Source: Candidatus Methylacidiphilales bacterium
GTDB taxonomy: Bacteria > Verrucomicrobiota > Verrucomicrobiia > Methylacidiphilales > Verrucolacustridaceae
Direction: 5' to 3'
Length of the DNA stretch: 64,000 bases
Assembly (NCBI GenBank): GCA_044358595.1
Contig: JBIKNP010000009.1
Span: forward strand, 8,433-72,432
Position numbers and translations under genes: made by a program. Each line of letters opens with the position of its first letter. Positions within the stretch are counted from its first letter, which is position 1. The notes beneath the pieces were generated by a model. It searched no databases and was not told the origin of the DNA. It saw only the letters and a list, made by a program, of their open reading frames with translations. Of this stretch, positions 7,708 to 64,000 are shown one piece after another.

Positions 7708-8601
7708 TTGAACGCACATCACCCATTAACAGATCAGATGGTTCGCTCTTACGCCGAATTAGCTGCGATTAACCATTTAGGGGGAACTCAACTCCCTTCA
7801 AAGGCGGCTGTTGCGGCAATTACGGAGGATTTGCTCCACCTGCTTTTTCCTGGGTTTTATGATGGGGATAATCTGGAGGGGAAGGAACTTGGGCCCGCCA
7901 TTACGTCTCTTCTTCGATCTGTTGAAAAGGCCCTAACAAAAGAAATTGGTAAAAGTATGCCTGCCACTGGGGTCGCCGGGGAAACAGCAGCAGGTAAAGT
8001 GGAGGCGTTTCTCAAGCGACTTCCTGCAGTTCGAAAAATCTTAAAGACGGATGTAGAGGCCGTTATGGCAGGCGATCCTGCGGCACGAAATGTTGAGGAA
8101 ATTCTTTTGGCTTATCCCGGCATTGAAGCCATCGCTGTTCAGAGAATGGCTCATGAACTTCATCTTCTTGGAGTCCCTCTTTTTCCTAGAATGATGACCG
8201 AATGGGCTCACAGTCGCACAGGAATCGATATTCACCCTGGGGCAGTGATTGGCCACTCATTTTTCATCGATCATGGAACGGGAGTTGTGATTGGAGAGAC
8301 AACAGAGATCGGGCAAGAGGTTCGAATTTATCACGGGGTGACCCTAGGTGCGCGGTCGGTTACAGGGGCCCAGACCTTGCGAGGTCGTAAGCGACATCCG
8401 ACGATTGAGGATCGCGTGACTATTTATCCAGGGGCCACAATTCTTGGGGGTGAGACGGTCGTGGGCGAGGGAAGCACGATTGGAGGGGGGGTTTTTCTTG
8501 CGAAGAGTGTTCCTCCTCATCACCTCGTATTTGCTGAGCACGCGACATTAAAAATTATTCCCAAGTCGGAGAGGCCACAGGGCAGCGAATACACGATATG
8601 A
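7708..8601 (+). CDS. cysE: serine O-acetyltransferase (EpsC/CysE)
   Basis: GDPAA, AYPG, TGIDIHPGAVIG, FIDHGTGVVIGET, IYHGVTLG, KRHPTIED hexapeptide repeats. Confidence 0.93.
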   Translation: MNAHHPLTDQMVRSYAELAAINHLGGTQLPSKAAVAAITEDLLHLLFPGFYDGDNLEGKELGPAITSLLRSVEKALTKEIGKSMPATGVAGETAAGKVEAFLKRLPAVRKILKTDVEAVMAGDPAARNVEEILLAYPGIEAIAVQRMAHELHLLGVPLFPRMMTEWAHSRTGIDIHPGAVIGHSFFIDHGTGVVIGETTEIGQEVRIYHGVTLGARSVTGAQTLRGRKRHPTIEDRVTIYPGATILGGETVVGEGSTIGGGVFLAKSVPPHHLVFAEHATLKIIPKSERPQGSEYTI

Positions 8602-8638
8602 ATAACTTCATCTTTTCCGGTTGGCCTGCCACCCTTAA

Positions 8639-9742
8639 TTGTACGTATTGTACGTTGTGAACTCGTCCCCCCAAACTGTGGAACGGGAGCGGCTCCCCCT
8701 GCTTCTTGAGCAGGAGATGCAGGGGTTTTTCCATCGGCAGAAGGAGCGATATGACTTCGGGGATCTTTTTGAACCGATCTTTTTCGATATGTGCGAATTT
8801 GTTGGCAGAAAAGGAAAGCGAATCCGACCGCTTCTTTTTCTTCTCACTTATCGGGCCTTGGGAGGCGCCAAGGGCTGGGCGGATAAATCTTTAGTTCAGG
8901 CCGCACTCTCTCTTGAGCTTTTGCATGCATTCGTTCTTGTTCACGATGATTTGATTGATCACTCTGAAAAAAGGCGGGGTTTGCCTACGTTTCATAAACT
9001 GGTGGAGCAGCGGCAGGGTAGGATGAGCCATGCGGAGCGGACGGGGCAAGGCGTGGCCTTGGTGGTGGGAGATCTGCTGTTTGCACTTTCGGTTGAGACG
9101 CTCTTGCAGAGTTCTTTTGATGTGGGGCCTCGGCAACAGGCTTTGGGTAAACTTCTCTCGTATGTGACGGATACGGGGGTGGGTGAGATCTTTGATATTC
9201 TTTTAGGTTCTCGTGATATCGGGCGAGTGACTCGTGAGGAGATCGAGTTGACCTACCTCTTGAAAACCACAAGGTATACCTTTGAAGCACCTGGTGTGAT
9301 TGGGGCATTACTTGCAGGGGCCAGCCCCGAGAAAGCGGAGGATCTAGCCAAAGTGATGGAACCTCTCGGGTTGGCGTTTCAGATCCAAAATGACCTACTT
9401 GAAGTTTCCCATCTTGACGGGAAAGACCAACTCCTGCCCACGGATCTGATGGAAGGGAAAAAGACTCTTCTGATTCACGAGGCTTATCAGAGGTTGGGTG
9501 AGGTGGATCGATCTTTCTTGCAGATGTGTTTTCACTCCGCTGCACGAAGCGAGGCATCTATTTCGAAGGTACAGGATCTGTTGAGAAAGTCTGGGGCAAT
9601 CCAGGTCATGCAGGAGCGTTGCCGCGTTTTATTTGAGCAGTCGAACCGACTTCTGCTTGAGTCTCACTTGTCGCAGGAAGAGCAGGCCTCGATTTCCGAG
9701 GCGATTGCTTGGGTAAGGCAGACGGTTCGTTTGGGGAGTTAG
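8639..9742 (+). CDS. polyprenyl diphosphate synthase (GGPP synthase-like) with degenerate second Asp-rich motif
   Basis: GKRIRP, LELLHAFVLVHDDLIDHSEKRRG, GDLL, KTTRYT, LAFQIQNDLLE, DLMEGKKT. Confidence 0.85.
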   Translation: MYVLYVVNSSPQTVERERLPLLLEQEMQGFFHRQKERYDFGDLFEPIFFDMCEFVGRKGKRIRPLLFLLTYRALGGAKGWADKSLVQAALSLELLHAFVLVHDDLIDHSEKRRGLPTFHKLVEQRQGRMSHAERTGQGVALVVGDLLFALSVETLLQSSFDVGPRQQALGKLLSYVTDTGVGEIFDILLGSRDIGRVTREEIELTYLLKTTRYTFEAPGVIGALLAGASPEKAEDLAKVMEPLGLAFQIQNDLLEVSHLDGKDQLLPTDLMEGKKTLLIHEAYQRLGEVDRSFLQMCFHSAARSEASISKVQDLLRKSGAIQVMQERCRVLFEQSNRLLLESHLSQEEQASISEAIAWVRQTVRLGS

Positions 9743-9746
9743 TCGG

Positions 9747-10634
9747 TTGGGCTCTTTTTCGTCCCCAAGTTTGGCGGACTCATTTCGGTCGGCGAAGGCG
9801 ATCACGCGCACGCACGCACGCACCTTTTATTTCGCATCCCATGTTTTGGCGGAGTCCATCCGTCGGGATGCTTACGCTGTGTACGCATGCTGTCGTTCGA
9901 TTGATGATGCAGTGGATCAGGTTGCTGCGAGGGGAGAGGCTGTGCGACCTGAAGTAGCAGGGGAGATGTTAGTGAGGGCGTTTGAATCGGGAGGGGATCA
10001 GTCTGGTGAAGAGTGGATGCCTGCATTTCGAGATACAGTCAGCCGAAAGAAAATCCGAAGAATGTGGTTTGAGGATTTGGCGATCGGGGTCGCGGGGGAC
10101 GCGGGACCTGTCAATTTGCAGACTTGGGAAGAGTTGGATCGCTACTGTTATCGTGTTGCAGGAACAGTGGGATTGATGATGATGAGAGTCTTTGGATCTG
10201 AAGATCCTCAAGCAGAACCTAGGGCCTTGGACTTAGGAAGAGGAATGCAGTTGACGAATATTCTAAGAGACGTGGCGGAGGATGCTAGGGCGAGGAGAAT
10301 TTACCTTCCTGCACGCGAAAGAGAGAAGTATGGGGTACGTGCTGAAGACCTTCTTATGGGGAGGATGTCTGGGCATTGGGCTGAATTCATGCAGTTTCAA
10401 GTTTCACGAGCGAGGGAGCAGTATCGATTGGCTGAGCCTGGTATTGCTTTGTTGCCGAAAGGCGGACCTCAAATGTCAGTTTGGTTTATGAGAGAGTTAT
10501 ATGCTGGAATTTTGGATCCGATTGAGGCTTCTAGATACGACGTATTTCGGAAAAGGCACTCTCTTTCCATGGGGCAAAAACTGGTGCGGGCGTTGGGAAT
10601 CTGGTGGAAAAGAAGAAGCGGTTGTTGGTCGTAA
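9747..10634 (+). CDS. crtB: phytoene/squalene synthase family, probably phytoene synthase
   Basis: TFYFAS, YACCRSIDDAVD, YCYRVAGTVG, MQLTNILRDVAEDARARRIYLP; follows a GGPPS-like gene while HpnC/HpnD lie elsewhere in the window. Confidence 0.8.
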   Translation: MGSFSSPSLADSFRSAKAITRTHARTFYFASHVLAESIRRDAYAVYACCRSIDDAVDQVAARGEAVRPEVAGEMLVRAFESGGDQSGEEWMPAFRDTVSRKKIRRMWFEDLAIGVAGDAGPVNLQTWEELDRYCYRVAGTVGLMMMRVFGSEDPQAEPRALDLGRGMQLTNILRDVAEDARARRIYLPAREREKYGVRAEDLLMGRMSGHWAEFMQFQVSRAREQYRLAEPGIALLPKGGPQMSVWFMRELYAGILDPIEASRYDVFRKRHSLSMGQKLVRALGIWWKRRSGCWS

Positions 10635-46141: not shown

Positions 46142-47074
46142 TTATTTACCCGATTCACCAAGCGTCTTGAGCTGACGATCCGTCACGAGCCAAACGAGGC
46201 CGTTCTTTTTGGCTAATTCCTTAGACAGTGCCTGCCGCTCCGGCGTCTTTGGATATTCGATGAGCAGCACGGGCTTCTTTGCCCAAGCCAATGTCTTTAA
46301 ATGGCCGAGGATTTCATCCGTGTGCGAGGCGGGCTGGAGTTTCTTTCCATTGGTGAAAAGATCCTCGATACCTTGGGCGCTGATGACCTCAACGAAGTCC
46401 TTGTGGGCAACCAGTTGGGAGCCGTTTTGCGGGATGACGAGTGCCGCGGGATCTTTTGCGCGGGCGCGGGCGGTGATCGCTTTCACCCAGTCCACCATGT
46501 CGCGGCGATAGGTCTGCTTGGTCTCCGGGTTCATGCGGTCGTCCAGGTAATCGTCGGCTCCCTGCTCATATGTCTGGAAGCCATCCACAATATCCAGATA
46601 CACGCCGTCAAAACCTCGGGCCATCGCATCGTCGATCGCGGGTAGTACCAGCTTTTGCCAATCGTCGCTCCAATATTTGACCTGATAATTCCCTTTCCAC
46701 TCCGGATTCTCGATCCCGAGCCATGCTGGTGCGGCGGCGGTCCGCTTGCCATTGCTGACCCACTCGGACTGCCAATAGGAACGGTAATCCTCTGCTTCGC
46801 CGATGGAGAGATATGCGACCACTTTTCGCCCCGCTTTGCCACTGCGGATTGCGTCGAGGTCCGCTTGCTCCCACGGCGTGTCGCCAGCGAAGGTCGCGTC
46901 GAGCACGATCCAATCGCGTCCGCTTTCCTTGAGTTTTGCAACCACCGCAGGTTTTGTTTTAGCGAAAGAATCGGCCTGCAGGATGTAGGCAAACGAGACA
47001 GGGTTTGATTCCGCGCACGCAAAGTGTGACAGCATGAAACTCAGAACGGCGGCACGGAAGGGGAGAAAATTCAT
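46142..47074 (-). CDS. secreted GH114-like (TM1410/MJ1477-type) endo-alpha-1,4-polygalactosaminidase
   Basis: Signal peptide; AYLSIGEAEDYRSYW, NPEWKGNYQVKYW, GFDGVYLDIVD, LIPQNG-like VIPQNG, EDLF. Confidence 0.78.
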   Translation of the reverse strand: MNFLPFRAAVLSFMLSHFACAESNPVSFAYILQADSFAKTKPAVVAKLKESGRDWIVLDATFAGDTPWEQADLDAIRSGKAGRKVVAYLSIGEAEDYRSYWQSEWVSNGKRTAAAPAWLGIENPEWKGNYQVKYWSDDWQKLVLPAIDDAMARGFDGVYLDIVDGFQTYEQGADDYLDDRMNPETKQTYRRDMVDWVKAITARARAKDPAALVIPQNGSQLVAHKDFVEVISAQGIEDLFTNGKKLQPASHTDEILGHLKTLAWAKKPVLLIEYPKTPERQALSKELAKKNGLVWLVTDRQLKTLGESGK

Positions 47075-47130: not shown

Positions 47131-48279
47131 TCATTCCCCGATGGAATGGCTTACGCTGAATTGGTAGATCGTCCGGGTCTGGTAGGTTTCACCGGGCCGG
47201 AGGATGGTGTTGGGAAATTTCGGTTGATTCGGACTGTCGGGAAAATGCTGTGTTTCTAGGCAAAGTGAACTGCGCTTCATATAGGGTTTTCCGGATTTCC
47301 CGTTGAGCGATCCATCTAGGAAATTTGCGGTGTAGAGCTGAAGTCCCGGCTGATCGGTGAAAACCTGCAGTTTTCGACCACTGGTTTTTTCATAGAGGGT
47401 CGCGGCAGGCTTCTTAACCCCTTTTTTCGGGTTCAGAACAAAAGTGTGGTCATACCCATTCCCATTGGCCAGTTGCTCGTTCGTCTGATTAATATCCCGC
47501 CCGACCGGCTTGGGGTGACGAAAGTCGAACGGTGTGCCCGCGACAGATGCAATCTTCCCGGTGGGGACAGAAGTTTTGCCAATCGGAAGTATCTCCTCAG
47601 CATCAATCATGAGTTCGTGATTAAGCACGGTGTCCGAACCTTCTCCCGCAAGATTAAAATAACTGTGATTGGATAAGTTGATCGGCGTTGGTCGGTCGGT
47701 CGTGGCTCGGTAGTCGATGATGAGCTCGTTGCCATCGGTGAGCGTATAGGTCACCCGAGCCTTGAGCGTTCCGGGGTAGCCCTCTTCTCCATCTGGAGAG
47801 GTGTAATTGAATTGAACGCCGTTCCGGAGTTGCTTTGCGTCCCACACGACCTTGTCAAAACCGGTGACCCCACCATGGTTGTGATTCGGACCGCTGTTCT
47901 TCGCGAGCACATGCTCAACACCGTCCAGGGTGAAGCGTCCATTGGCGATCCGCCCAGCGTATCGGCCGAGGGTCGCCCCGAGGTAGGGCTTCTTGACGGA
48001 TGACCGATAGGGTTCGACGGTGTTGAAGCCGAGCACGACGTCTGCCATGGCGCCGCTACGGTCTGGCACTTTGATCGAGGTGATGCGCGCGCCGTAGGAG
48101 GCCAGTCGCACCTCCATTCCGTGGGCGTTCTTTAGGTTAAATTGGGCATCTGGGTCATGGACCACCTGGGACCCCGAATGGCCTGGCATCAGGGCCGTCG
48201 AGAAGACCAGGCAGGCGAGTAAACATACTTGGCGTCCCGTGGGACGATGCGGAAGTTTCGGGCAGAGAAGATGGTTCAT
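47131..48279 (-). CDS. galM: aldose 1-epimerase (galactose mutarotase), probably exported
   Basis: GRYAGRIANGRF, HNHGG, GEEGYPG, NLSNHSYFNL, QLYTANFL, CLETQHFPDSPN; hydrophobic N-terminal extension. Confidence 0.95.
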   Translation of the reverse strand: MNHLLCPKLPHRPTGRQVCLLACLVFSTALMPGHSGSQVVHDPDAQFNLKNAHGMEVRLASYGARITSIKVPDRSGAMADVVLGFNTVEPYRSSVKKPYLGATLGRYAGRIANGRFTLDGVEHVLAKNSGPNHNHGGVTGFDKVVWDAKQLRNGVQFNYTSPDGEEGYPGTLKARVTYTLTDGNELIIDYRATTDRPTPINLSNHSYFNLAGEGSDTVLNHELMIDAEEILPIGKTSVPTGKIASVAGTPFDFRHPKPVGRDINQTNEQLANGNGYDHTFVLNPKKGVKKPAATLYEKTSGRKLQVFTDQPGLQLYTANFLDGSLNGKSGKPYMKRSSLCLETQHFPDSPNQPKFPNTILRPGETYQTRTIYQFSVSHSIGE

Positions 48280-48490: not shown

Positions 48491-49033
48491 ATGGAGAATA
48501 ATATAACCGATGCAAGTGGCCCGACGCCCGAGTTCGTCCAGCTCTTGACGGCATCGCAAAGCGCTTTGTACGCCTTCATCGTGTCGCTTTTGGGTGGAGT
48601 GAACGACGCCCACGACGTGCTTCAAGAAGCAAACATGAAACTATGTCGGAAATGTGCCGAGTATGATCCGAACCAGCCTTTCCTGCGCTGGGCCTACGCA
48701 TTTGCCCGTTTTGAGGTCATGGCGTGCCGGAAGCGCAACCAGCGGTCGCGCTTGGTTCTGGACGATGCCTTGTTGGCTACCTTTGCCGACGAACTCGAGG
48801 GAACCTCCGAAGACGCGGATCAGCGGTTGAAAGTGCTGGAAACCTGCATGGAGCGCATGACCCCTCGGCAGCGCGAACTCATCGCTGCGCGTTACGGTCG
48901 GGGTGAGGCGGTGCAGGATATCGCGAGCCGTCTTTCCTCATCGGAGAATGCGATGGCTGCCCTCTTTTACCGGTTGCGCAAAATGCTGGCCGACTGCGTG
49001 CAGTCAGTGATCGGTAACAAGGTGAGGGCATGA
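48491..49033 (+). CDS. ECF RNA polymerase sigma-70 factor (Planctomycete/Verrucomicrobia type)
   Basis: FVQLLTASQSALYAFIVSLL, DAHDVLQEANM, FLRWAYAFARFEV, region 4 LIAARY..LFYRLRKMLADCV. Confidence 0.93.
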   Translation: MENNITDASGPTPEFVQLLTASQSALYAFIVSLLGGVNDAHDVLQEANMKLCRKCAEYDPNQPFLRWAYAFARFEVMACRKRNQRSRLVLDDALLATFADELEGTSEDADQRLKVLETCMERMTPRQRELIAARYGRGEAVQDIASRLSSSENAMAALFYRLRKMLADCVQSVIGNKVRA

Positions 49034-50424
49034 GTAAGGAGTCATTCGAGCACCTGTGCCAGGCAGTCCTGGAGGGCACGGCCGACGAGGTGCAACTCGA
49101 ACAGTTCCGCGCGCACTTGCGCGCCGATGCGGTGCAGCGCAAGGCTTACCTCGACCAGACACAGATGCATGCCCTGCTTACTTGGCAACAGGGGCGCGCG
49201 GCCATCCCTGAGCTTGCCCTTCTCTCTCCGACGAATGTAGCTCCCCAACCGAAGATTCGCACCTTCCGCTCCCGCAGGACATCCCCCCTCCTTCAGGCGG
49301 CACTCGCAGCAGCAGTCCTTCTGATGGTGGGATTCGCCTTTTGGCAATTTGGCGATCACGGACGCAAACCCGACTCCGTGTCCGTGGCGAAAGGGGTATC
49401 GGTTGATATCCTTGCCTCGGAGGGCTCGCCGTATCAGGTGGGTGAGCGGGTGGTGCTGGAGAAATTGCGGATGGATAGGGGTTCTTTACGGTTCCGAATC
49501 TCCTCCGGGGCGGTGGTGGACCTAGAAGGTCCCGTGATCTTGGAATTTGTGAATCCGATGCGCTTGCGGCTGTTGCTGGGCAACGTCACCATCGATGTGG
49601 GTTCGGAAGCCAAGGGGTTTGTGCTCGATACAGCGAGCGCCCTCTTGATGGATATTGGTACGCGCTTCGGGGCTTCCGTGGGGAATGACGGCAGCACCGA
49701 TGTTCTGGTGCTTGAAGGTGAGGTTGAAGTTTACCGGGCTGGGGAACTACCTACACAGAAAAGCCGACTCGCGAGTCTTTATGAGGGGGAGGCGGCGCGG
49801 ATGGCGAATCGGGAAGCTAAAATCCAGCGCTTGCAAGCGTTGGCTTTACAGGGTGATCGCTTGGCGATTCGGGGCTTGAACGCCCCTGATTCGGAGGTGA
49901 TCACGGGTGTCACGGACAATATCAAGAAAGCAAACTTTTACCGGTGCTATACGATCACACCGGGTGGTATGGGGGAGGGTGCGCTGGCTTCCCTCGTTCA
50001 TCGCGGGCACCGCAACCTCACTTGGCGCGCCATGCCCGACCAGCTTTTCCCGGCAGAATTGGAAGGAGCCGATGTGATCGGGACCTTTCAACGTCAATCG
50101 ATCCACCAACCACTGCCCGACATTAATCTCGAACTGTCCCGTCCCTGTGCGGTTTACGTTTTATTCGATAGTCGGGCGGAGCCGCCCGAGTGGTTGCGGC
50201 AGGGCTTTCGGGACACTGGGTTACGCTTGCGTAGTGGTCCGTGGTGGCCGGACCTGTTTGAAACGAAAAAGCTTATGCCGGATGCGAATGGTGAGCTCTA
50301 TGTCGTGCATTCTGTCTGGCGCAAGGACGTGCCGGGCTCTGCCACGGTGACACTCGGTGCGCCTACAATTGTAAGCGAGAAATATCGCTACGCCATGTAT
50401 GGCATTGCCGTGAAGCCGCTCTAA
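49030..50424 (+). CDS. FecR-like transmembrane anti-sigma factor with extracytoplasmic sensor domain
   Basis: ATGA overlap with sigma; N-terminal helical anti-sigma domain, TM LLQAALAAAVLLMVGFAFW, FecR core SGAVVDLEGP..DIGTRFG..VLEGEVEV, extra C-terminal domain. Confidence 0.88.
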   Translation: MSKESFEHLCQAVLEGTADEVQLEQFRAHLRADAVQRKAYLDQTQMHALLTWQQGRAAIPELALLSPTNVAPQPKIRTFRSRRTSPLLQAALAAAVLLMVGFAFWQFGDHGRKPDSVSVAKGVSVDILASEGSPYQVGERVVLEKLRMDRGSLRFRISSGAVVDLEGPVILEFVNPMRLRLLLGNVTIDVGSEAKGFVLDTASALLMDIGTRFGASVGNDGSTDVLVLEGEVEVYRAGELPTQKSRLASLYEGEAARMANREAKIQRLQALALQGDRLAIRGLNAPDSEVITGVTDNIKKANFYRCYTITPGGMGEGALASLVHRGHRNLTWRAMPDQLFPAELEGADVIGTFQRQSIHQPLPDINLELSRPCAVYVLFDSRAEPPEWLRQGFRDTGLRLRSGPWWPDLFETKKLMPDANGELYVVHSVWRKDVPGSATVTLGAPTIVSEKYRYAMYGIAVKPL

Positions 50425-53370: not shown

Positions 53371-55212
53371 ATGAAACAAACCGCTTTGAGTCTAATGTCG
53401 GCGAGCCTGTTGTATGCCGGGTCGTTGTCGTTTGCTGTCCAGCCGACCTGGCCGGATATTACGATTCAGGTTCAAGCCGGCCAGCCGGTCGAGACGGCAC
53501 AAACCGTGACGGATGAGGCGGACGGTTTTCAGCGTGTGGCCATCACCCTCTCCAACAAAGGCTCTCAGCCGCTGGCAATCGAGAGGATTAATATCCGCAT
53601 CCCTCTGGCCGAAAAACTGACTAGTGATCTTGAGATTCTTTACGGTGGAAGTTGTATGGGGCGCACGCCCATCTTACGCCAGAACGTGGGCGCGGCGACC
53701 GCGAAAAGCTCCAGCCACATGTTTGAAATGGTGCGACTGGCGGACGGTAAGTATCTCTTCGCTGGGGCGCTCTCTTGGCGCATCTTCCTACCAAACTTCA
53801 CGATCAAGGACGGCGCGATCGTGATCTGGTCTGACGGCGAGGGGCGGCAACTCAAACCGGGTGAGACGATTTCGTATGAGCAAATTGTCCTCAAGCGTGG
53901 CGACGATTGGCTGATGACTCTCGACCAATTCGGCACCGCCATCGCAGGGGAGAACGGCATCAAGAAACTGAAGCCTGCCGATTTCAAAGGTTGGGCCACA
54001 TGGGATTACTATGGCCGAGTTTTTACCGCCAAGGATATCTACGGCAACATGGATGTGCTTAAAAAAATCGCCCCCGAGGCGAACATAGTCCAGATCGACG
54101 GTGGCTGGTGGACCGAGCGCGGCGATTACCAGAGCGTACGCCCCAATCTTCTGCCCGGCGGCATCAAGGAGATCATCTCCCGTGTCACTTCTGAGGGGAA
54201 AATCCCCGGCATCCACTTCGACGGCTTTCGGGGCGATGAGAATTCTGAGATCTACAAAGCCCACCCCGAATATTTCCTGCACGATCTGGACGGCAAGTTG
54301 ATCGTTGAGGTGAATAACAAGGGGGACAAGGTGATGAGGTATATTTACTTCGATTACTCACATCCCGGCGCGCGGGCGCATATCGCCGATTGCATCAAGA
54401 ACATGAAGGACAATTGGGGCATTCGTTATTTCAAGGTGGACTTCATGCGGTACGGCTTGAAGAACGACACTCTGGCTAAGAATAAAAAGGCCAAAGGGAT
54501 CAAAGCCTTCGACCCGACGATCACCAGTGTGGAGCGTTTCCGTCTCGCGATGAAAACCATGCGCGATGCCATGGGGCCGGACACCTATTTTCTGGGTTGC
54601 TCAGCGGTCTTCGGACCCTGCATCGGATTCGTGGACGGGATGCGCACTGGCGGCGACATCCACCCAAGATACGGGGCCTTTCCCGAACGCTCGCTGGCCA
54701 ATCTCGGTAACTTCTATTTGAACGGCAAGGTGTGGAATGGCGATGCCGACTATCTCGTTTTCCGCGAGGCGGCCGATGAAGATGCGACGGTTTCCCAGGA
54801 GGACGTCAAACACGGCGGCAGTATGACGCTCAACGAGGCGCAAATGTGGGCGGACTTCAACAAGCTTTACGGCACAGCTCGACTAAGCAGTGATAACCTG
54901 ATGACGCTCAGGCCAGAACGGCAGGCATTGGTGAAAGAAGTGTTGCAGTATCCAGCGATGGACGAGACCGTGCCGCTGGATCTCTGGCAGCATAGCAAGA
55001 ACAAGGGCGACGGCTTCGATCTGGTGCTCGCTCGTAAAGGTGAGGGGGTCTACCTCGGAGTCTTCAACTGGGGCGAAAAGCCCAAGGAGTATGCACTGCA
55101 AGCCTTCGGCAAGGCTGAGCCTGTCAAATTGGACGGACGTCATTCGATCATCTTGAAATACGACGGTAAGGACTCTTTCGCGCAACTTTGTGCGAAGATG
55201 AAATCCAAATGA
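53371..55212 (+). CDS. secreted clan GH-D (GH36/GH27-like) alpha-galactosidase-type glycosidase
   Basis: Signal peptide; GWATWDYY, QIDGGW, YFDYSHP, YFKVDF (nucleophile), MRTGGDI (acid/base). Confidence 0.8.
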   Translation: MKQTALSLMSASLLYAGSLSFAVQPTWPDITIQVQAGQPVETAQTVTDEADGFQRVAITLSNKGSQPLAIERINIRIPLAEKLTSDLEILYGGSCMGRTPILRQNVGAATAKSSSHMFEMVRLADGKYLFAGALSWRIFLPNFTIKDGAIVIWSDGEGRQLKPGETISYEQIVLKRGDDWLMTLDQFGTAIAGENGIKKLKPADFKGWATWDYYGRVFTAKDIYGNMDVLKKIAPEANIVQIDGGWWTERGDYQSVRPNLLPGGIKEIISRVTSEGKIPGIHFDGFRGDENSEIYKAHPEYFLHDLDGKLIVEVNNKGDKVMRYIYFDYSHPGARAHIADCIKNMKDNWGIRYFKVDFMRYGLKNDTLAKNKKAKGIKAFDPTITSVERFRLAMKTMRDAMGPDTYFLGCSAVFGPCIGFVDGMRTGGDIHPRYGAFPERSLANLGNFYLNGKVWNGDADYLVFREAADEDATVSQEDVKHGGSMTLNEAQMWADFNKLYGTARLSSDNLMTLRPERQALVKEVLQYPAMDETVPLDLWQHSKNKGDGFDLVLARKGEGVYLGVFNWGEKPKEYALQAFGKAEPVKLDGRHSIILKYDGKDSFAQLCAKMKSK

Positions 55213-56814: not shown

Positions 56815-58794
56815 ATGAAAATCAATCCTATGAAAAATACCCAATTTAACTCCTCCACCATGATGAAAATGTTGAGTCTCATCGCGCTGGTGGTTGCATG
56901 CTCGTGTTCATCCGTTCAAGCCGTGCCGCCATCGATAGCCTTTGGGGTTTGGGATCGCACCTCTACCTTCGATCCAAAGGACTACCCCTTCCTGAAGGGA
57001 TTGGCGTTTAACCAAGCATGGGCGGATCTTGAAAAACAGCCGGGTGTTTTTGATTGGAGTGCTTTGGATCAGGCCATGGATTCTGCGGTTAAAAGGAACC
57101 AGTTTATTTATCTTTCCGTTAATGTGGGACCGGACTCGCCGGAGTGGATCTATACAAAGGGTGTCCCGCGTGTGGAGACACGTAACCAGACGCACGACAG
57201 CTGGCCATCTTATCCCTTCTATCCTTCGCCCGAATACAAATCGTTTTTACAAAAAATGATCACCGAATTTGCGAAACATATTCGCACTTATCCAAAAGAG
57301 AAGCAGGAGCGCATCGCTTTCATTCAGGTCAAGACTGGGTGCACCGGTGATGAGTGCGCTTACAAGGGTACTGTTGTGGAGAATAAGTATGACTTGCCCA
57401 CCAAGTCCCCCGCCTGGCGGGAGTTCCGGCTGTGGCAGTTTGATTTGTTTGTGAAGACCTTCCAGGGCGGTTCTGACCAGCCTCAGATTGCCCTCATGTT
57501 TAACAATGTGGAGCCGGATGGCGAAGAGACGGCCGAGGGTAAGAATGGTGGAAAGGGGGAGGGGAAGGGCGAGGGTGGATTTATCGAAGAGTGGAAATGG
57601 GTCACAGCCAACGCCAAGGGCGGAGTTGGTGTCAAAATTGCTGGCAGCGGACGTGGTCACCACCTGAGCGGGGAGCGAACCAAGATCGAGACATGGGAAC
57701 CCCTTCTCATCGCTTCGCAGGGCACTCCCTTGTTTGCCCGGTCTGAAATGGACCAAACTTGGCAAAAGGCCATGTATTTTGTGAATCGGCCACTCAACTT
57801 CTACTGGGGTGCCCTCACAGGTCTGCAAAACGGGCAAAGCATCTGGGATGTCAGCGCTGGCGCCATGGAAGCCTGCAAGGAACAGGGTTTTGACTACTCC
57901 TTCTATTTCTTTGATCGCTATGCAGGACAAATTGACCCGAAGACAGCTACCGATGTCTTCTGCGCTTTACACAAAGGGCTGGATGCTGCCGATACCAAGG
58001 CCTATCCCGAGGCCGAGTTCGGGGCTGCCCAGCGCAAGAACGTGGACCGTATGCTGAAAATTTGCGCTGCCTACGCCAAGTATGGGGCGGCGGTGGACGA
58101 CCAGAATGGTCTACTGCTCGGGCAAGTCCGGCAACGAGACACGCAAACGGGATTGAACGATGTGGGTTGGGATATCTGGCCAGACAACTATGGTCGCTTT
58201 CTTTATCAGATCGATTCCGACGCCACGTCGGTTCCGCTCTGGCGCGTGGGGGGGCCGATCACGCAGATGTCCTCCATCTACTCCCGCTTTGCCCGCGGCT
58301 TCGAGCACGCCTCAGGCAAAGACACTATGTTTTTCAAGCTGCACGAGGGCTTCTCCGAGGGTAATGAACCGAAGGTCATGACGATGACCGTCGTCTGGTA
58401 TGACGGGACGGCAGGCTCGACTTGGAAGTTGGATTACGACGCTGGCAAGGGGGGCATGAAGACGGCGCTGAACGTCACTGGGAAAGGTGACAAGCAGTGG
58501 CATCATGAAACGGTTACAGTCGAGGATGCCGTGCTGCGTCAGGGTGGAACCAAGGGCGCGGACTTCGCCCTAGTGAACACCGATGACAAGGACGACATCT
58601 TCAGCCTGATCGAAGTTCATCGCGGCAAACTAGAAACACCCATCCTATTGCCTCCGACGAGTTACAAGGTGCCCGACAAAGCACCGAAGGGGCCTAAAGC
58701 CGATAAGGGCGATAAGGGCGATAAGGCTGGCAAGTCTGGCAAAGAGAAAAAGGGAAAAGGGAAGAAGTCTGACGAAGACGCAACGCAGGAATAA
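56815..58794 (+). CDS. secreted putative TIM-barrel glycan-active enzyme, paralog 1, with C-terminal beta-sandwich and Lys-rich tail
   Basis: Signal peptide; WADLEKQPGVFDWSALD (GH35/42-like start), TGCTGDE, RGHHLS, SEMDQTW. Confidence 0.65.
   Translation: MKINPMKNTQFNSSTMMKMLSLIALVVACSCSSVQAVPPSIAFGVWDRTSTFDPKDYPFLKGLAFNQAWADLEKQPGVFDWSALDQAMDSAVKRNQFIYLSVNVGPDSPEWIYTKGVPRVETRNQTHDSWPSYPFYPSPEYKSFLQKMITEFAKHIRTYPKEKQERIAFIQVKTGCTGDECAYKGTVVENKYDLPTKSPAWREFRLWQFDLFVKTFQGGSDQPQIALMFNNVEPDGEETAEGKNGGKGEGKGEGGFIEEWKWVTANAKGGVGVKIAGSGRGHHLSGERTKIETWEPLLIASQGTPLFARSEMDQTWQKAMYFVNRPLNFYWGALTGLQNGQSIWDVSAGAMEACKEQGFDYSFYFFDRYAGQIDPKTATDVFCALHKGLDAADTKAYPEAEFGAAQRKNVDRMLKICAAYAKYGAAVDDQNGLLLGQVRQRDTQTGLNDVGWDIWPDNYGRFLYQIDSDATSVPLWRVGGPITQMSSIYSRFARGFEHASGKDTMFFKLHEGFSEGNEPKVMTMTVVWYDGTAGSTWKLDYDAGKGGMKTALNVTGKGDKQWHHETVTVEDAVLRQGGTKGADFALVNTDDKDDIFSLIEVHRGKLETPILLPPTSYKVPDKAPKGPKADKGDKGDKAGKSGKEKKGKGKKSDEDATQE
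58276..58631 (+). repeat. near-identical copy of 60283-60638 (3' domain of paralogs 1 and 2)
   Basis: By-eye alignment shows long identical runs with mostly third-position differences. Confidence 0.85.
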
Positions 58795-58848
58795 GCCGAT
58801 CCTGCTAGATTTGCGGTCGCAACAGATAACGACATCGCAAAAAGTTTA

Positions 58849-60753
58849 ATGAAGCCAATTGAATTCAAGACCTATACCTTCATAAGCACTCTCAGTCTTA
58901 TAGGTCTGTTGGTCGTCTGCTCGTTTGCCTTGCTTCAATCAGCGCCGCCGCCAAGCGCCTTTGGGGTGTGGGATCGGGCGGATAAATTTGACCCCAAAGA
59001 GTATCCCTTCCTCAAAGGGTTTAGTTTCGATCAGAAATGGGCCGATTTGGAAAAGCAGCCGGGAGTTTTTGATTGGAGCGGCTTGGATGAGGTTATGGAA
59101 AGAGCCACTCAGAATAAGCAGTTCGTTTATTTATCCTTGGGTGTGGGGCCCGTTGCTCCGGAATGGATTTACCAACATGGTGTGCCGAAAGTTGAGACCG
59201 ACGGTGAGAAGGATAAACACATGGATAAATGGGATGGCTATCCTTACTACTTGGCTCCCGAATACAAAACGTATTTTTTCCGCCTGATTCAGGAATTCGG
59301 AAAACATATTCGCAGTTATCCCCGCGAAAAACAGGAGCGTATTGCATTTATCCAAATCAAGACCGGATGTACCGGTGATGAAACCGCCTATAAAGGCAAG
59401 GCCATCGAGAGCAAATATGATCTGCCTCGCAGCTCTCCCGCGTGGCGAGAGTTCCGCTTGGAGACCTTCGACTTGTTTGTGAAAATCTTCGCTGGAAGTG
59501 CTGATCAGCCTAAGATTGACCTGCTATTCAACGCCATCGGACCGGTCATCGGATCGGAAGAGGACCCAGTCGAAGCCCAAGAGGGATTCGTCAAAGAGTG
59601 GGATTGGGTGATCCATCACGTCCAAGGCAGCTTTGGTATCAAGAATGGAGCTCTTTCTCGCGGGCATCATCTCTCCGGAGAACGCTCCTTGTATAACCAG
59701 TGGACACCCTACCTCCTTGATCCCAAGGGGCTGACGCTGTTCCGCCGGTCGGAGATGGATCAGACCTGGCAGAAGCCGTGGTATCAGTTGAACGTCCCAC
59801 TCAATTTTTACTGGGGCGCGATCAACGCCCTTAATGGCGGTCAGAGTGTCTGGGATGTCACCAAGAGCGCCATAGACGCGTGCAAGGAACAGGGCTTCGA
59901 CTACTCCTTCTACTTCTTTAACCGCTACGCCGGACAGATCTATCCCAAGACAGCCACCGATGCCTTCTGCGCTCTACACAAAGGATTAGATGCTGCCGAT
60001 ACCAAGGCTTATCCCGAGGCAGAGTTTGGACCTGCCCAGCGCAAGAACGAGGGTCGCATGCTGAAAATCTGCGCCGCGTACGCTAAGTATGGTGCGGCGG
60101 TCGATGACGAGGATGCACTGTTGCTGGGGCAAGTCCGCCAAAGAGACACGCAAACCGGATTCAACGACGTAGGCTGGGATATCTGGCCGGACAACTATGG
60201 CCGCTTCCTCTATCAGATCGATGCTGATGACACATCGGTTCCGCTCTGGCGTGTGGGCGGTCCGATTACTCCGACCTCTTCTATCTACTCCCGCTTTGCC
60301 CGCGGCTTCGAGCACGCCTCCGGCAAAGACACGATGTTTTTCAAACTGCACGAGGGCTTTTCCGAGGGTAACGAGCCGAAGGTCATGACGATGACCGTCG
60401 TCTGGTATGACAGGACGGCAGGCTCAACATGGAAGCTGGATTACGACGCTGGCAAGGGGGGCATGAAGACGGCGCTGAACGTTACTGGGAAAGGTGACAA
60501 GCAGTGGCATCATGAAAGGGTCACGGTGGAGGATGCGGTGCTTCGTCAGGGTGGAACCAAGGGCGCGGACTTTGCCCTCGTGAACACCGATGACAAGGAT
60601 GACATCTTCAGCCTGATTGAAGTCCATCGCGGCAAACTGGAGGCCCCGGAGGTGTCTGACATAGCGCCGGTGACACCCGAGGCGGGAAAGGCAACCAAAG
60701 CTGGCAAAGAGAAAAAGGGGAAACGAAAGAAGGCGGATGAAGAAGCAGATTAG
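58849..60753 (+). CDS. secreted putative TIM-barrel glycan-active enzyme, paralog 2
   Basis: Same motifs as paralog 1 (GVWDR, TGCTGDE, RGHHLSGE, SEMDQTW, GWDIWPDNYGRF); Lys-rich tail. Confidence 0.65.
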   Translation: MKPIEFKTYTFISTLSLIGLLVVCSFALLQSAPPPSAFGVWDRADKFDPKEYPFLKGFSFDQKWADLEKQPGVFDWSGLDEVMERATQNKQFVYLSLGVGPVAPEWIYQHGVPKVETDGEKDKHMDKWDGYPYYLAPEYKTYFFRLIQEFGKHIRSYPREKQERIAFIQIKTGCTGDETAYKGKAIESKYDLPRSSPAWREFRLETFDLFVKIFAGSADQPKIDLLFNAIGPVIGSEEDPVEAQEGFVKEWDWVIHHVQGSFGIKNGALSRGHHLSGERSLYNQWTPYLLDPKGLTLFRRSEMDQTWQKPWYQLNVPLNFYWGAINALNGGQSVWDVTKSAIDACKEQGFDYSFYFFNRYAGQIYPKTATDAFCALHKGLDAADTKAYPEAEFGPAQRKNEGRMLKICAAYAKYGAAVDDEDALLLGQVRQRDTQTGFNDVGWDIWPDNYGRFLYQIDADDTSVPLWRVGGPITPTSSIYSRFARGFEHASGKDTMFFKLHEGFSEGNEPKVMTMTVVWYDRTAGSTWKLDYDAGKGGMKTALNVTGKGDKQWHHERVTVEDAVLRQGGTKGADFALVNTDDKDDIFSLIEVHRGKLEAPEVSDIAPVTPEAGKATKAGKEKKGKRKKADEEAD

Positions 60754-60845
60754 GAAAAAGCAGTCCGATTTGAGGCTGGGTTAGCATCTTTAAAGGGCGG
60801 ACCGGGCTATGACGAGGGGGGTTGGGCTCATGTTCCTTTCGATTT

Positions 60846-60872
60846 TGTCACACAGCACATAAATTTGCTAAA
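60846..60872 (+). promoter_or_regulatory. weaker candidate ECF promoter for paralog 3
   Basis: TGTCACAC-N13-GCTAAA; same spacing, 5/8 and 5/6 matches. Confidence 0.35.
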
Positions 60873-60899
60873 TAGCGAATTGGTAGTATGTTAGACTTT

Positions 60900-63800
60900 A
60901 TGAGAAGCGCTTTTCTCCTCCTCAGCGCTTTGATGCTGGCTCCGCTATACCCGCTTCGCGCCGAGCTCGGACTGCAACGTGATGCCTATGGCGTATGGGA
61001 CCGGGCGGGAGGGCATCCTGTCGATCAATATCCCTATGTCCGGGGTCAGGAATATGCGGCGGAGTGGACGGCAATCAATCCAGCTCGGAACACCTTTGAC
61101 TGGACTGCGCTAGATAGCCTATTGCAGGTGGCCTACGATCAAAACCAGAGATTTTTCGTCAAGATCCAGCCTGTCTCTGGGACGACTATGCCGCCTTGGA
61201 TATTTGATGCGGGCGTTCCAAAAATCACCTGCCCTACGTACACCTATGGATACTATCTGGATCCTGAATTCAAAATCTACTTTGAAGAAATGGTGCAGGC
61301 GCTGGGCAAACATCTGCGCGAGGACGTTCCGGCTCATCTGGCGAATATCGTCTCTTTCGTTCGCGTAGATACCGGCGCCACGGGGGACGAAGAGCCGTAT
61401 GAAGGCTCGGACGTTCCCTTCGTTCCGCCTGAGTATCAAATTAGCGCCAACGATTGGAAGGGTTATAGGCTGTGGGCCTTCAATGTTTATGACCAGGCCT
61501 TCCAGCACGGCACGGGACCTCAAATTCCACTGCTCTTTCAAAATATCGAGGTGCCTGCCTATCAGACCGAGCAGGACTGGGTGACGGCCAATGTAACGTC
61601 CGGATTCGGTGGCAAGTATGGCGGACAAGTTCGCGGGCACCATTTGTCGGAATCCAGAAACGTGTCGGACTCGTTCAAGGCGCTTTCCATGGATACACCG
61701 TCCAAGTTTTTCTCCGTAAATGAGATGGATCAGACTTGGGAAAAACCCTATTTCCAGCTCAATCTCAAATTGGGCATGTACTGGTGCGCGGTGGAACAAC
61801 TCAACGCCGGCATGACAATATGGGATTGGAGCAGTTCGGTCATGGAGGGCGCGGCGGCCAATGACATCGTCTCTATTGCCGAGTTTTTCAACACCTGGGC
61901 GGCGGAACTCGACCCGCCAACGGCCCGAGGCGGATTCTGTATCTTTCACGAAGGACTTGCTTCCGAAGATATAGATAAGTTTCCAGAAGCAACCTATGGA
62001 TCGCCGGCAAACAGGGGCAATACCAACCGGTATACCAACATCTGCGCGGCCTATGCCAGCCAGGGGGCCAAGATGGACGATCTGAACGCGGTCACCTTGG
62101 GACAGGTGGCGCAGCGCAGGGTACAGGCTGGATTCAACGATTCCGGTTGGGGGATTTGGCCTGGGAACTATGAACGATTTATAATTCAGATGAACCCGGA
62201 CTCCACTAGTAAGGGACTCTGGCGCGTCAACGGAACTTTGACGACCAGCTCGCATCCGTATGACCGCTTCGCACGCCGTTTCGACAACGCCTCCAGCAGA
62301 AATACGATGTATTTTGACATCAATGACAAACTGCTGCCTTCAGCGGGCCAGCGGGTTAGGCTTTCCGTGGACTATCTGGACCGAGGCACCGGTCAGTTTG
62401 CCCTTCAATACGATGCCGTAGGGAATAACCAGAAAAACGCGTTCACGGTCACGAAGACTGGTAGTAATACTTGGAAGACAGCCTCGGCGATAGTCACGGA
62501 CTGGGCCTTCAGAAACGGCAGCCTAAACGGTGCTGACCTGACATTGGTTAATCTGGATACAGATGATGATATTTTTCACAAATTGGAAGTGACCAAGCTG
62601 GCCAATGTCCAAATCGGCACCGTTGGCATGGGCACGGTCAGCGCTCGCACGGACGCCGCGACCTACTCGCCGGTCGTAGGTAGCGACTTCGCCGAGAGCC
62701 AGCGCTTGGAATTGACGGTGACTCCTGCTTCGGGATGGAAATTCACCGGATGGAGCGGCGATTTGACCGGGACCAGTGCCCGCCCGTTTCTTTTCCCAAC
62801 CAAAGACTCGCGGGTCACGGCCACCTTTGCTCGGACTTCGGCTACCCCTCCGAGCAGCATACCTCTCTTCAGCAGCGATCCGATCGGCAAGACCGCCGCA
62901 CCGGTCAATGGGGTCTACTCGGGAACCCTTTCGGGAAATGCCAGCGATCCGAACGGGCAACCGTTGACTTTCTCCAAAACCTCCGGCCCCTCTTGGCTCA
63001 GCATCGCTGCCAACGGGACCCTCTCTGGAACACCGCAGCTCGCCGACCTGGGCCTAAATAGCTGGACGGTGCGGGTAAGTAGCTCCGGCGGCAGTGACAC
63101 GGCGATTCTCCTGATCGATGTCACTGCACCTGGTCCTAATCCACCCTCGGGCCTAAGCTACTCCAGCCCTCCCGTTTACACCAAGGGTACGGCGATCGCG
63201 AATCTCTCCCCTTCGAACAGTGGCGGGGGCGTGGTGAGATATGCGGTCACGCCCAAATTACCAAGCGGCTTCAGCATGAACAGCATCACCGGCATTATTA
63301 GTGGCACACCTTTGGCACCAACACCGGCGACCCCCTACAGCATCACGGCGATTAATCCCGACGGTTCGAGCACCACCTCACTCAACATCACGGTCATCGA
63401 TATAGCCCCTTCCGCACTGACCTATTCCAGCAATCCCGCAACCTATCGAATAGATCAGGCGATCACTTCGAATGTTCCCACCAACAGTGGTGGAGCCGTG
63501 GTTTCCTACGCGGTCTCGCCCGCACTACCAGCCGGGCTGGCTTTAAGCACCACCACCGGCATCATTAGCGGCACGCCGACGGCACTTTCTACCAGCGCCA
63601 ACTACACTATCACCGCCACCAACACAGGCGGCTCGACAACTGCCAAGCTGAACATTGCAGTCGAAGAAGGCGGCTACCGCAATTCCGACCTCATCACGAT
63701 CAATGACAATGCAGCGGCCTCGCCCTACCCATCCGCGATCGCGGTGCCAACAACAGCCGGAACAATCACTAAGGTCACGGTCACGATTTATGGCCTCACA

Positions 63801-64000
63801 CACGAAAGGCAAAACGATTTGGACATTCTGCTAGTCGGGCCACTGGGGCAGAAAGTGCTGTTGATGTCGGATGTTGGCGGAGGTGTGTCTGTAGCCAATG
63901 TGAATCTAACGTTCGATGATGCAGCCACAGTTTTCCTGCCGACTAGTGCGGTGTCCATTACCACCGGAACCTACAAACCCACTGATAGCGGGGCAACTTC
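60900..64000 (+). CDS. multidomain secreted paralog 3: catalytic module + B-repeat-like + three putative Ig (He_PIG-like) + proprotein convertase P-like domain; runs off window
   Basis: Not in ORF track; hand translation MRSAFLLLSALMLAPLYPLRAELGLQRDAYGVWDR..TGATGDE..RGHHLS..NEMDQTW; LTVTPASGWKFTGWSGD; GTLSGTP, GIISGTP x2; ITINDNAAASPYPS..THERQNDLDILLVGP; over 1030 codons with no stop. Confidence 0.85.
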   Translation, partial: MRSAFLLLSALMLAPLYPLRAELGLQRDAYGVWDRAGGHPVDQYPYVRGQEYAAEWTAINPARNTFDWTALDSLLQVAYDQNQRFFVKIQPVSGTTMPPWIFDAGVPKITCPTYTYGYYLDPEFKIYFEEMVQALGKHLREDVPAHLANIVSFVRVDTGATGDEEPYEGSDVPFVPPEYQISANDWKGYRLWAFNVYDQAFQHGTGPQIPLLFQNIEVPAYQTEQDWVTANVTSGFGGKYGGQVRGHHLSESRNVSDSFKALSMDTPSKFFSVNEMDQTWEKPYFQLNLKLGMYWCAVEQLNAGMTIWDWSSSVMEGAAANDIVSIAEFFNTWAAELDPPTARGGFCIFHEGLASEDIDKFPEATYGSPANRGNTNRYTNICAAYASQGAKMDDLNAVTLGQVAQRRVQAGFNDSGWGIWPGNYERFIIQMNPDSTSKGLWRVNGTLTTSSHPYDRFARRFDNASSRNTMYFDINDKLLPSAGQRVRLSVDYLDRGTGQFALQYDAVGNNQKNAFTVTKTGSNTWKTASAIVTDWAFRNGSLNGADLTLVNLDTDDDIFHKLEVTKLANVQIGTVGMGTVSARTDAATYSPVVGSDFAESQRLELTVTPASGWKFTGWSGDLTGTSARPFLFPTKDSRVTATFARTSATPPSSIPLFSSDPIGKTAAPVNGVYSGTLSGNASDPNGQPLTFSKTSGPSWLSIAANGTLSGTPQLADLGLNSWTVRVSSSGGSDTAILLIDVTAPGPNPPSGLSYSSPPVYTKGTAIANLSPSNSGGGVVRYAVTPKLPSGFSMNSITGIISGTPLAPTPATPYSITAINPDGSSTTSLNITVIDIAPSALTYSSNPATYRIDQAITSNVPTNSGGAVVSYAVSPALPAGLALSTTTGIISGTPTALSTSANYTITATNTGGSTTAKLNIAVEEGGYRNSDLITINDNAAASPYPSAIAVPTTAGTITKVTVTIYGLTHERQNDLDILLVGPLGQKVLLMSDVGGGVSVANVNLTFDDAATVFLPTSAVSITTGTYKPTDSGAT

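Follow-up and report, generated by a model that had tools for sequence, protein, structure and literature searches.

What does the run of similar genes encode that closes a 64,000-nucleotide stretch of the genome of Candidatus Methylacidiphilales bacterium (assembly GCA_044358595.1, contig JBIKNP010000009.1, positions 8,433 to 72,432; G000:C31:8433-72432 in contig numbering)? We refer to this whole stretch as the window and give positions in window numbering unless they are labelled L005 or contig. The original prediction, made from the sequence alone, had read positions 56815-64000 as three tandem paralogs of a possibly new glycoside hydrolase (GH) family and had named candidate catalytic residues. 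Here, we found a fourth paralog directly beyond the window. With a probability of about 0.6, we consider the four proteins (P1-P4) to be anciently diverged members of a large, uncharacterised, secreted glycoside hydrolase family of clan GH-A type that would act on a sulfated, galactose-rich polysaccharide.

A tandem array of diverged paralogs

The three paralogs in the window carry every motif that had been listed for them, i.e. GVWDR, TG(C/A)TGDE, RGHHLS, EMDQTW, ICAAYA, GWxIWPxNYxRF and RFARxF, at equivalent positions (Table 1). These motifs had been called invariant, a description that holds among P1-P3 and their clade and fails across the whole family. P1 and P2 are 73% identical, and P3 shares 38% identity with P1/P2 over ~600 amino acids (aa); for P4 the identity is 35%. 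When the genome was searched with P2, the E-values were 0 for P1 and 7e-117 for P3, far below what chance would give.

Signal peptides are present on the array proteins. In P1, a signal peptide with a lipobox-like VVAC precedes the TIM barrel, an alpha/beta region, a beta-sandwich and a Lys-rich tail. Disordered, very Lys-rich C-terminal tails of this kind lie at ~58640-58791 in P1 and ~60640-60750 in P2 (for example KGDKGDKAGKSGKEKKGKGKKSDE), and the consensus of close homologues keeps the tail as a feature; the tails may bind a polyanion or the cell surface. P3 continues into a long stalk with an InlB B-repeat, a Big_9 domain, five He_PIG immunoglobulin-like (Ig) domains, a proprotein-convertase P-domain and a terminal beta-rich module. 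A DDDGDG repeat in this stalk looks TSP3-like by eye and has no Pfam match. Long P3-like forms are seen in other lineages, e.g. one of 1477 aa at locus L113. Two long antisense open reading frames (57247-57930 and 61119-62255, minus strand) fall inside the coding regions of the array.

Is the array the product of a recent amplification? In a maximum-likelihood tree of 66 members the family splits into two superclades, with P1, P2 and P3 in one and P4 in the other. The closest orthologues are P0103 for P1 (79% identity; bootstrap 100%, clade support 100/99), P0002 for P2 (87%; bootstrap 99%), P0129 for P3 (56%; bootstrap 100%, support 100/100) and P0220 for P4 (60%; bootstrap 100%). In 24 of 78 related loci the family is present as an array of 2-6 copies, and one other lineage holds P1-like, P2-like, melibiase-like, 1477-aa P3-like and sulfatase genes in a single run. 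Because each paralog has its own orthologue clade and the gene set recurs in other lineages, the array is, judged from these sequences, a set of anciently diverged enzymes and not a recent amplification.

Predicted structure and fold neighbours

We modelled P2 with AlphaFold2. From 65 diverse sequences, including representatives at 27-44% identity, the model reached a pLDDT of 91 and a pTM of 0.89; an earlier run with 36 close homologues (>=64% identical, except P3 at 38%) had given a pLDDT of 65, and its fold matches are taken as a lead only. The better model comprises a (beta/alpha)8 barrel with strands at residues 39-42, 55-63, 92-98, 165-169, 224-228, 262-265, 297-303 and 334-337 and helices between them, followed by a highly conserved alpha/beta region (~371-490), which holds ICAAYA, GWxIWPxNYxRF and RFARxF, by the C-terminal beta-sandwich that had been anticipated from the sequence (495-594), and by the disordered Lys-rich tail.

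A Foldseek search of the PDB placed GH35 structures first (8pej, 7kmn, 8fa4 and 8z47/8z48, the last two being a beta-1,2-galactosidase of B. xylanisolvens), with E~1e-9, TM-scores of 0.37-0.43 and 9-12% identity. The GH14 beta-amylase 1veo came next, with a TM-score of 0.44 and a root-mean-square deviation (rmsd) of 7.8 A over 476 columns. GH42 structures were seen only in the search with the poorer model, which also listed the GH84 structure 2v5d. Both the modelled barrel and the TIM-barrel glycosidases at the top of the list agree with the (beta/alpha)8 barrel of clan GH-A, and the expected TIM-barrel glycosidase-like fold with a beta-sandwich is borne out by structure prediction and fold search.

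The best fold matches, the GH35 enzymes Bgl35A of Cellvibrio japonicus (4d1i/8pej), GanA of Xanthomonas (8fa4) and XAC1772 (7kmn), resemble the family in a (beta/alpha)8 barrel that is followed by a beta-sandwich. They differ from it in that identity is ~11%, in that the family is devoid of their Asn-Glu dipeptide and has the additional conserved alpha/beta region, and in that it carries a Lys at strand 6 where an aromatic residue is usual. Beta-amylase shares a barrel with long loops; however, its identity is 10%, it is an inverting enzyme without a beta-sandwich, and it gives no signal at the sequence level. A layout in three parts (barrel, alpha/beta region, beta-sandwich) shared with GH42 is plausible. 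Since no close relative was found among solved structures, membership of any structure-bearing family, GH167 included, is excluded.

Relation to named families

Could the paralogs be assigned to a family by sequence? The Pfam model for GH42 (PF02449) matches P1 and P2 at 22.2 and 21.7 bits against a cut-off of 21, a borderline match that covers residues 64-158 and profile positions 33-125 of 376, while P3 (14.6 bits) and P4 (18 bits) stay below the cut-off. A PF02449 search of the source genome returned nothing at 1e-30. The GH35 model PF01301 matched neither P1-P3 nor any of the 65 members. Among these members, catalytic-domain matches in Pfam are confined to weak GH42 hits in 41 and a GH10 hit in one. 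A profile of the 65 members against all PDB sequences found GH42 (5xb7, E 1.3e-7), GH35 and GH10, all within residues 55-155, save for GH10 xylanases that reach ~224.

For profile comparison by hhalign, GH42 and GH35 alignments were built from same-phylum genomes. Globally, hhalign gave no meaningful alignment with either, and we used local alignments instead. GH42 was matched with 95% probability, over residues 61-159 only; GH35 was matched with 12% probability, in a weak alignment that continues into strand 4. GH42 (PF02449; 5xb7, 4ucf, 4uni, 3tts) is the only significant sequence relationship of the family and is limited to residues ~55-160. The GH42 motifs WH(I/V)SNE(Y/F) and (L/I)ME, seen in same-phylum GH42 proteins (there as WHxSNE(Y/F)), are absent from P1-P4, and where GH35 has the signature G-G-P-x-x-x-x-Q-x-E-N-E-[FY], K-T or a gap stands in the place of E-N-E. 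The proposed GH35/GH42-like opening of a TIM barrel is supported by Pfam, by the PDB profile search and by the fold search. The statement that no named family can be assigned also stands, as the sole Pfam relationship of P1 and P2 to a named family is a partial GH42 match of ~90 of 376 profile positions.

Two families were considered and rejected. GH167 exo-beta-carrageenases are described as 'GH42-like' members of clan GH-A that work with sulfatases on a sulfated galactan; they have four domains, including an N-terminal helical domain, in ~775-808 aa, and BovGH167 has been crystallised (PMC6923384). GH167 resembles the present family as a distant GH42 relative that is found with sulfatases, but our model has no N-terminal helical domain beyond the signal peptide, and no GH167-labelled structure was found among the top 50 fold matches or the listed sequence matches. 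GH185, defined by DUF4838 and 6-sulfo-GlcNAcase activity (PMC10570127), was considered for the Asp-Glu pair of the TGDE motif; the 65 members show no DUF4838 match, and the pair is not conserved. A preprint on synteny in Kiritimatiellia contained nothing relevant to the family.

Do P1-P4 instead belong, as ordinary members, to an already numbered CAZy family without solved structure or Pfam model, such as GH147 or a family created after 2023? Neither Pfam nor NCBIfam holds a model specific to the family, with no NCBIfam match for P1-P3. GH147 (Bacteroides beta-galactosidase and endo-beta-1,4-galactanase) is among the recent beta-galactosidase families and has no entry among the listed PDB matches, and some NCBI records call members 'beta-galactosidase'. 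Against this, the names attached to members in a collection of 5.8 billion proteins do not go beyond 'hypothetical protein', 'beta-galactosidase' or 'T9SS' (type IX secretion system) protein, and no structure-bearing family is close. Furthermore, the GH147 members cited are from gut Bacteroides and act on pectic galactan, whereas the close subfamily sampled here is sulfatase-linked and comes mostly from lake and groundwater metagenome-assembled genomes (MAGs). We regard this explanation as unlikely. A new glycoside hydrolase family of clan GH-A type with an atypical catalytic loop at strand 4 is probable, new here meaning set apart from families that have a structure or a Pfam model.

Candidate catalytic and substrate-binding residues

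Which residues would carry out catalysis? We counted residues over the 65 diverse members, in P2 numbering. G39, P104, D177, K265 and R403 are present in all 65, E302 in 64, R300 in 58 and D304 in 51. D177, K265, E302 and R403 each lie where a barrel strand ends on its C-terminal side or in the loop that follows. Glu302 lies within strand 297-303, at the end of strand 7, which is the position of the clan GH-A nucleophile, and SEMDQTW shares with the GH35 nucleophile motif MEFWNGW the spacing from Glu to a Trp five residues on, a likeness judged by eye. The proposal that the Glu of EMDQ is the nucleophile is accordingly strengthened in its position and conservation, while the catalytic role itself stays predicted.

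The other two assignments fared less well. The Glu of TGDE, E178, had been put forward as the acid/base; it is found in 26 of the 65 members, and 24 have no Glu at all at positions 169-181. It is the preceding Asp that is invariant. The 'invariant His pair' turned out to be clade-specific: position 273 is Tyr in 37 members and His in 20, position 274 His in 31 and Gln in 22, and position 271 Arg in 24 and His in 23. In P4, the sites of TGDE, RGHH and EMDQTW read TGDR, IGYQ and GEFSKF, and D177, K265 and E302 are kept. In P1-P4 the strand-4 segment is Q-x-K/D/A-T/F-G-x-T-G-D-E/R, and in the hhalign alignment to GH35 Gln169 pairs with the Gln of Q-x-E-N-E-Y, with a gap where Asn-Glu is expected.

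Together, Lys265, invariant at the end of strand 6, and the invariant or near-invariant arginines R300, R403, R482 and R485, joined in the P1-P3 clade by R271, H273 and H274, point to a site that would recognise an anionic substituent of the substrate.

Could the Asp177-Glu178 pair have a different function in that clade? GH20 enzymes have a G-G-D-E motif at the end of strand 4 that resembles TGDE. By analogy with GH20, GH84 and GH123, the pair could serve as polariser and acid/base in substrate-assisted catalysis on a sulfated N-acetylhexosaminide, with Glu302 only binding. This would fit the GH84 structure 2v5d among the matches of the poorer model, and the basic residues could bind a 6-sulfate, as 6-sulfo-GlcNAcases do exist (PMC10570127). 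However, 26 of the 65 members have the Asp-Glu pair against 64 with Glu302, Pfam gives no match to GH20, GH84 or DUF4838, and the top folds of the good model are GH35 and GH14, not GH20 or GH84. On balance, substrate-assisted catalysis is improbable.

Slightly less probable still is another reaction on anionic glycans, i.e. inverting hydrolysis, transglycosylation or phosphorolysis, in which the invariant Lys and Arg residues would take part in the reaction itself instead of recognising the substrate. Clan GH-A is indeed not characterised by an invariant Lys at strand 6, and the inverting beta-amylase is the best-superposed match (TM-score and rmsd given above). Yet both the Glu that ends strand 7 and the block W-x-x-x-E-P-x-x-G-x-F-D-W are typical of retaining GH-A families. 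Finally, some or all copies, and above all P4, which has neither Glu178 nor the His pair, could have kept an enzyme fold and only bind glycans without catalysis; enzyme-like binding proteins of this kind occur in tandem arrays in glycan loci. This is very improbable, since P4 keeps Asp177, Lys265 and Glu302 and its clade (P0180, P0181 and P0220) is conserved with the same substitutions, which argues for a selected distinct activity over decay.

Size and distribution of the family

How widespread is the family? When 1.84 billion representatives, clustered at 50% identity, were searched exhaustively with HMMER, 2342 clusters matched at E<=1e-3; of these, 917 reach E<=1e-10 and 347 reach E<=1e-30. 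T9SS sorting tails are present on eight of the 65 diverse members and dockerins on two, from which we conclude that the family is secreted. No member was found at E<=1e-20 in 100 evenly sampled genomes of the same phylum, so that the distribution is patchy.

Proteins of the P1/P2 type are 59-96% identical across genomes, nearly all of them MAGs and mostly from lakes and groundwater. The carriers are labelled Opitutae, Akkermansiaceae, Methylacidiphilales, Chthoniobacter, Planctomycetota, Sumerlaeota, Paludibacter and Flavobacterium, and the isolate Verrucomicrobia bacterium IMCC26134 is among them. P2 orthologues are 64-96% identical over several phyla, and copies at 59-75% identity are found in MAGs labelled Flavobacterium, Paludibacter, Planctomycetota, Sumerlaeota and Acidobacteria, where binning errors are possible. 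This pattern suggests horizontal transfer of the family among freshwater bacteria.

Genomic neighbourhood

What do the neighbouring genes tell about the substrate? The paralogs belong to a co-directional run that begins with two further glycosidase-like genes, both of whose products are themselves poorly classified, and directly downstream of P4, at the end of the contig and outside the window, lie three sulfatase genes (Table 1). The motif CGTCATAA-N12/13-GCTGAA, which resembles a promoter for an extracytoplasmic function (ECF) sigma factor, has three matches in the window where none was expected from 100 shuffles. One precedes the FecR-like gene, one the PEP-CTERM/PATR gene and one the run that starts at 53371. 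The three copies constitute a candidate ECF-sigma regulon that would include the paralogs, and they fit control by an ECF sigma factor.

We compared 78 related loci over +/-8 kb, many of them shorter than the full span; they were found with the close alignment and are biased to the P1/P2 clade. At least 40 of them have a sulfatase gene within 8 kb, 18 have a homologue of the melibiase-like gene and 16 have one of the (alpha/alpha)6-like gene. According to precomputed annotation, other loci hold an SSF transporter, AraC, an anaerobic sulfatase-maturating enzyme, SASA, galactokinase and mutarotase and, as glycosidases, two GH29 fucosidases, GH27, GH2, two GH127 and a melibiase-like protein. In the isolate IMCC26134 (CP011265.1:1393507-1411333), which is cultured and has a complete genome, a tandem pair of family members is flanked by five sulfatases, and the locus also holds a homologue of the (alpha/alpha)6-like gene. 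The recurrence of sulfatase, alpha-galactosidase-like, galactokinase, mutarotase and fucosidase genes points to a sulfated glycan that is rich in galactose and possibly contains fucose. The GH114 and aldose 1-epimerase pair upstream of the FecR module is also found in the closely related locus L010.

Table 1. Features of the array and its surroundings (window numbering unless labelled L005 or contig).
Feature	Position	Strand	Remarks
GH114-family protein and aldose 1-epimerase (mutarotase)	46142-47074 and 47131-48279	-	just upstream of the FecR module
Motif CGTCATAA-N12/13-GCTGAA	48458-48484	+	precedes the FecR-like gene
FecR-like gene	49030-50424
Motif CGTCATAA-N12/13-GCTGAA	50512-50537	+	precedes the PEP-CTERM/PATR gene
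PEP-CTERM/PATR surface protein gene	starts 50599		upstream of the array
Candidate ECF-sigma promoter CGTCATAA-N12-GCTGAA	52791..52816	+	upstream of the run starting at 53371
Melibiase-like (GH36/GH27-type), 613 aa	53371..55212	+	PF02065, 35 bits; first gene of the co-directional run
(alpha/alpha)6-type glycosidase-like, divergent, 532 aa	55188..56786	+	sub-threshold Bac_rhamnosid6H, MGH1-like
P1	56815..58794	+	659-aa open reading frame
P1 TGCTGDE	57334-57354	+
P1 RGHHLS	57652-57669	+
P1 EMDQTW	57745-57762	+
P2	58849..60753	+	634-aa open reading frame; protein chosen for modelling
P2 TGCTGDE	59362-59382	+
P2 Asp177 codon	59377-59379	+
P2 Lys265 codon	59641-59643	+
P2 RGHHLS	59659-59676	+
P2 EMDQTW	59752-59769	+
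P2 Glu302 codon	59752-59754	+
P3	60888..64000	+	open at window end; 1393 aa in the full contig
P3 catalytic module	~60888-62690	+
P3 TGATGDE	61371-61391	+
P3 RGHHLS	61632-61649	+
P3 EMDQTW	61722-61739	+
P3 C-terminal stalk	62690-64000 and L005:2120-4502	+
P4	L005:4641-6386 (G000:C31:73640-75385, contig)		581 aa; directly downstream of P3, outside the window
Three consecutive S1 sulfatases (PF00884)	L005:6804-8378, 8399-9838, 9847-10515		each with C-x-P-S-R

Discussion

Based on the modelled fold, the conserved residues and the recurring gene neighbourhood, we propose that the family is built from a (beta/alpha)8 barrel of clan GH-A type, an alpha/beta region and a beta-sandwich, as distant kin of the GH35 and GH42 beta-galactosidases. 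Its members would catalyse the retaining hydrolysis of a beta-glycosidic, probably galactosidic, bond, with Glu302 as the putative nucleophile. The loop after strand 4, G-x-T-G-D, would supply the general acid/base; Asp177 is the constant element of this loop, and Glu178 may be an addition or relocation specific to the P1-P3 clade.

How would the array work as a whole? Behind the ECF-sigma-type motif, the co-directional run would supply an alpha-galactosidase-like protein, an (alpha/alpha)6-like protein, the paralogs and three sulfatases. Because the paralogs share their run with these genes, the array most likely depolymerises a sulfated, galactose-rich polysaccharide of algae or cyanobacteria. 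In this reading, P3 on its Ig stalk would attack the polymer at the cell surface, and P1, P2 and P4 would act on the resulting oligosaccharides.

Several observations weigh against this proposal. The canonical Asn-Glu of clan GH-A is absent after strand 4 in all four paralogs, and position 172, where the canonical acid/base would probably fall, holds a Glu in only 18 of the 65 members and is occupied by Thr in P1-P3 and by Phe in P4; together, these two findings render the acid/base assignment uncertain. Sequence similarity to known GH families spans only about one sixth of the protein, and the best TM-scores are only 0.37-0.44. Moreover, the substrate is read from gene neighbourhood alone, and one related locus has no glycan context.

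A more specific scenario is tentative, its chances falling somewhat short of even. Here, the invariant Asp of G-x-T-G-D would replace the lost Asn-Glu acid/base in a new GH-A family with a Lys/Arg site for anionic groups, and the paralogs would act sequentially with the S1 sulfatases on an undefined sulfated galactan of freshwater phototrophs. The family would have spread horizontally among lake Verrucomicrobiota, Planctomycetota, Bacteroidota and Sumerlaeota.

Sulfated polysaccharides of algae and cyanobacteria are a large and slowly degraded pool of carbon, and knowledge of the enzymes that cleave their backbones is incomplete. The family described here is large, secreted and repeatedly located beside sulfatases, and the sources searched assign no activity to it. 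It might turn out to be a case in clan GH-A in which the acid/base has moved and a site for anionic groups is built into the enzyme. The cultured carrier IMCC26134 makes the question experimentally accessible. We regard the family as a solid and testable lead for enzyme discovery and not as a surprising new biological principle; its activity, once found, would define a new CAZy family and provide a marker gene for glycan turnover in fresh water.

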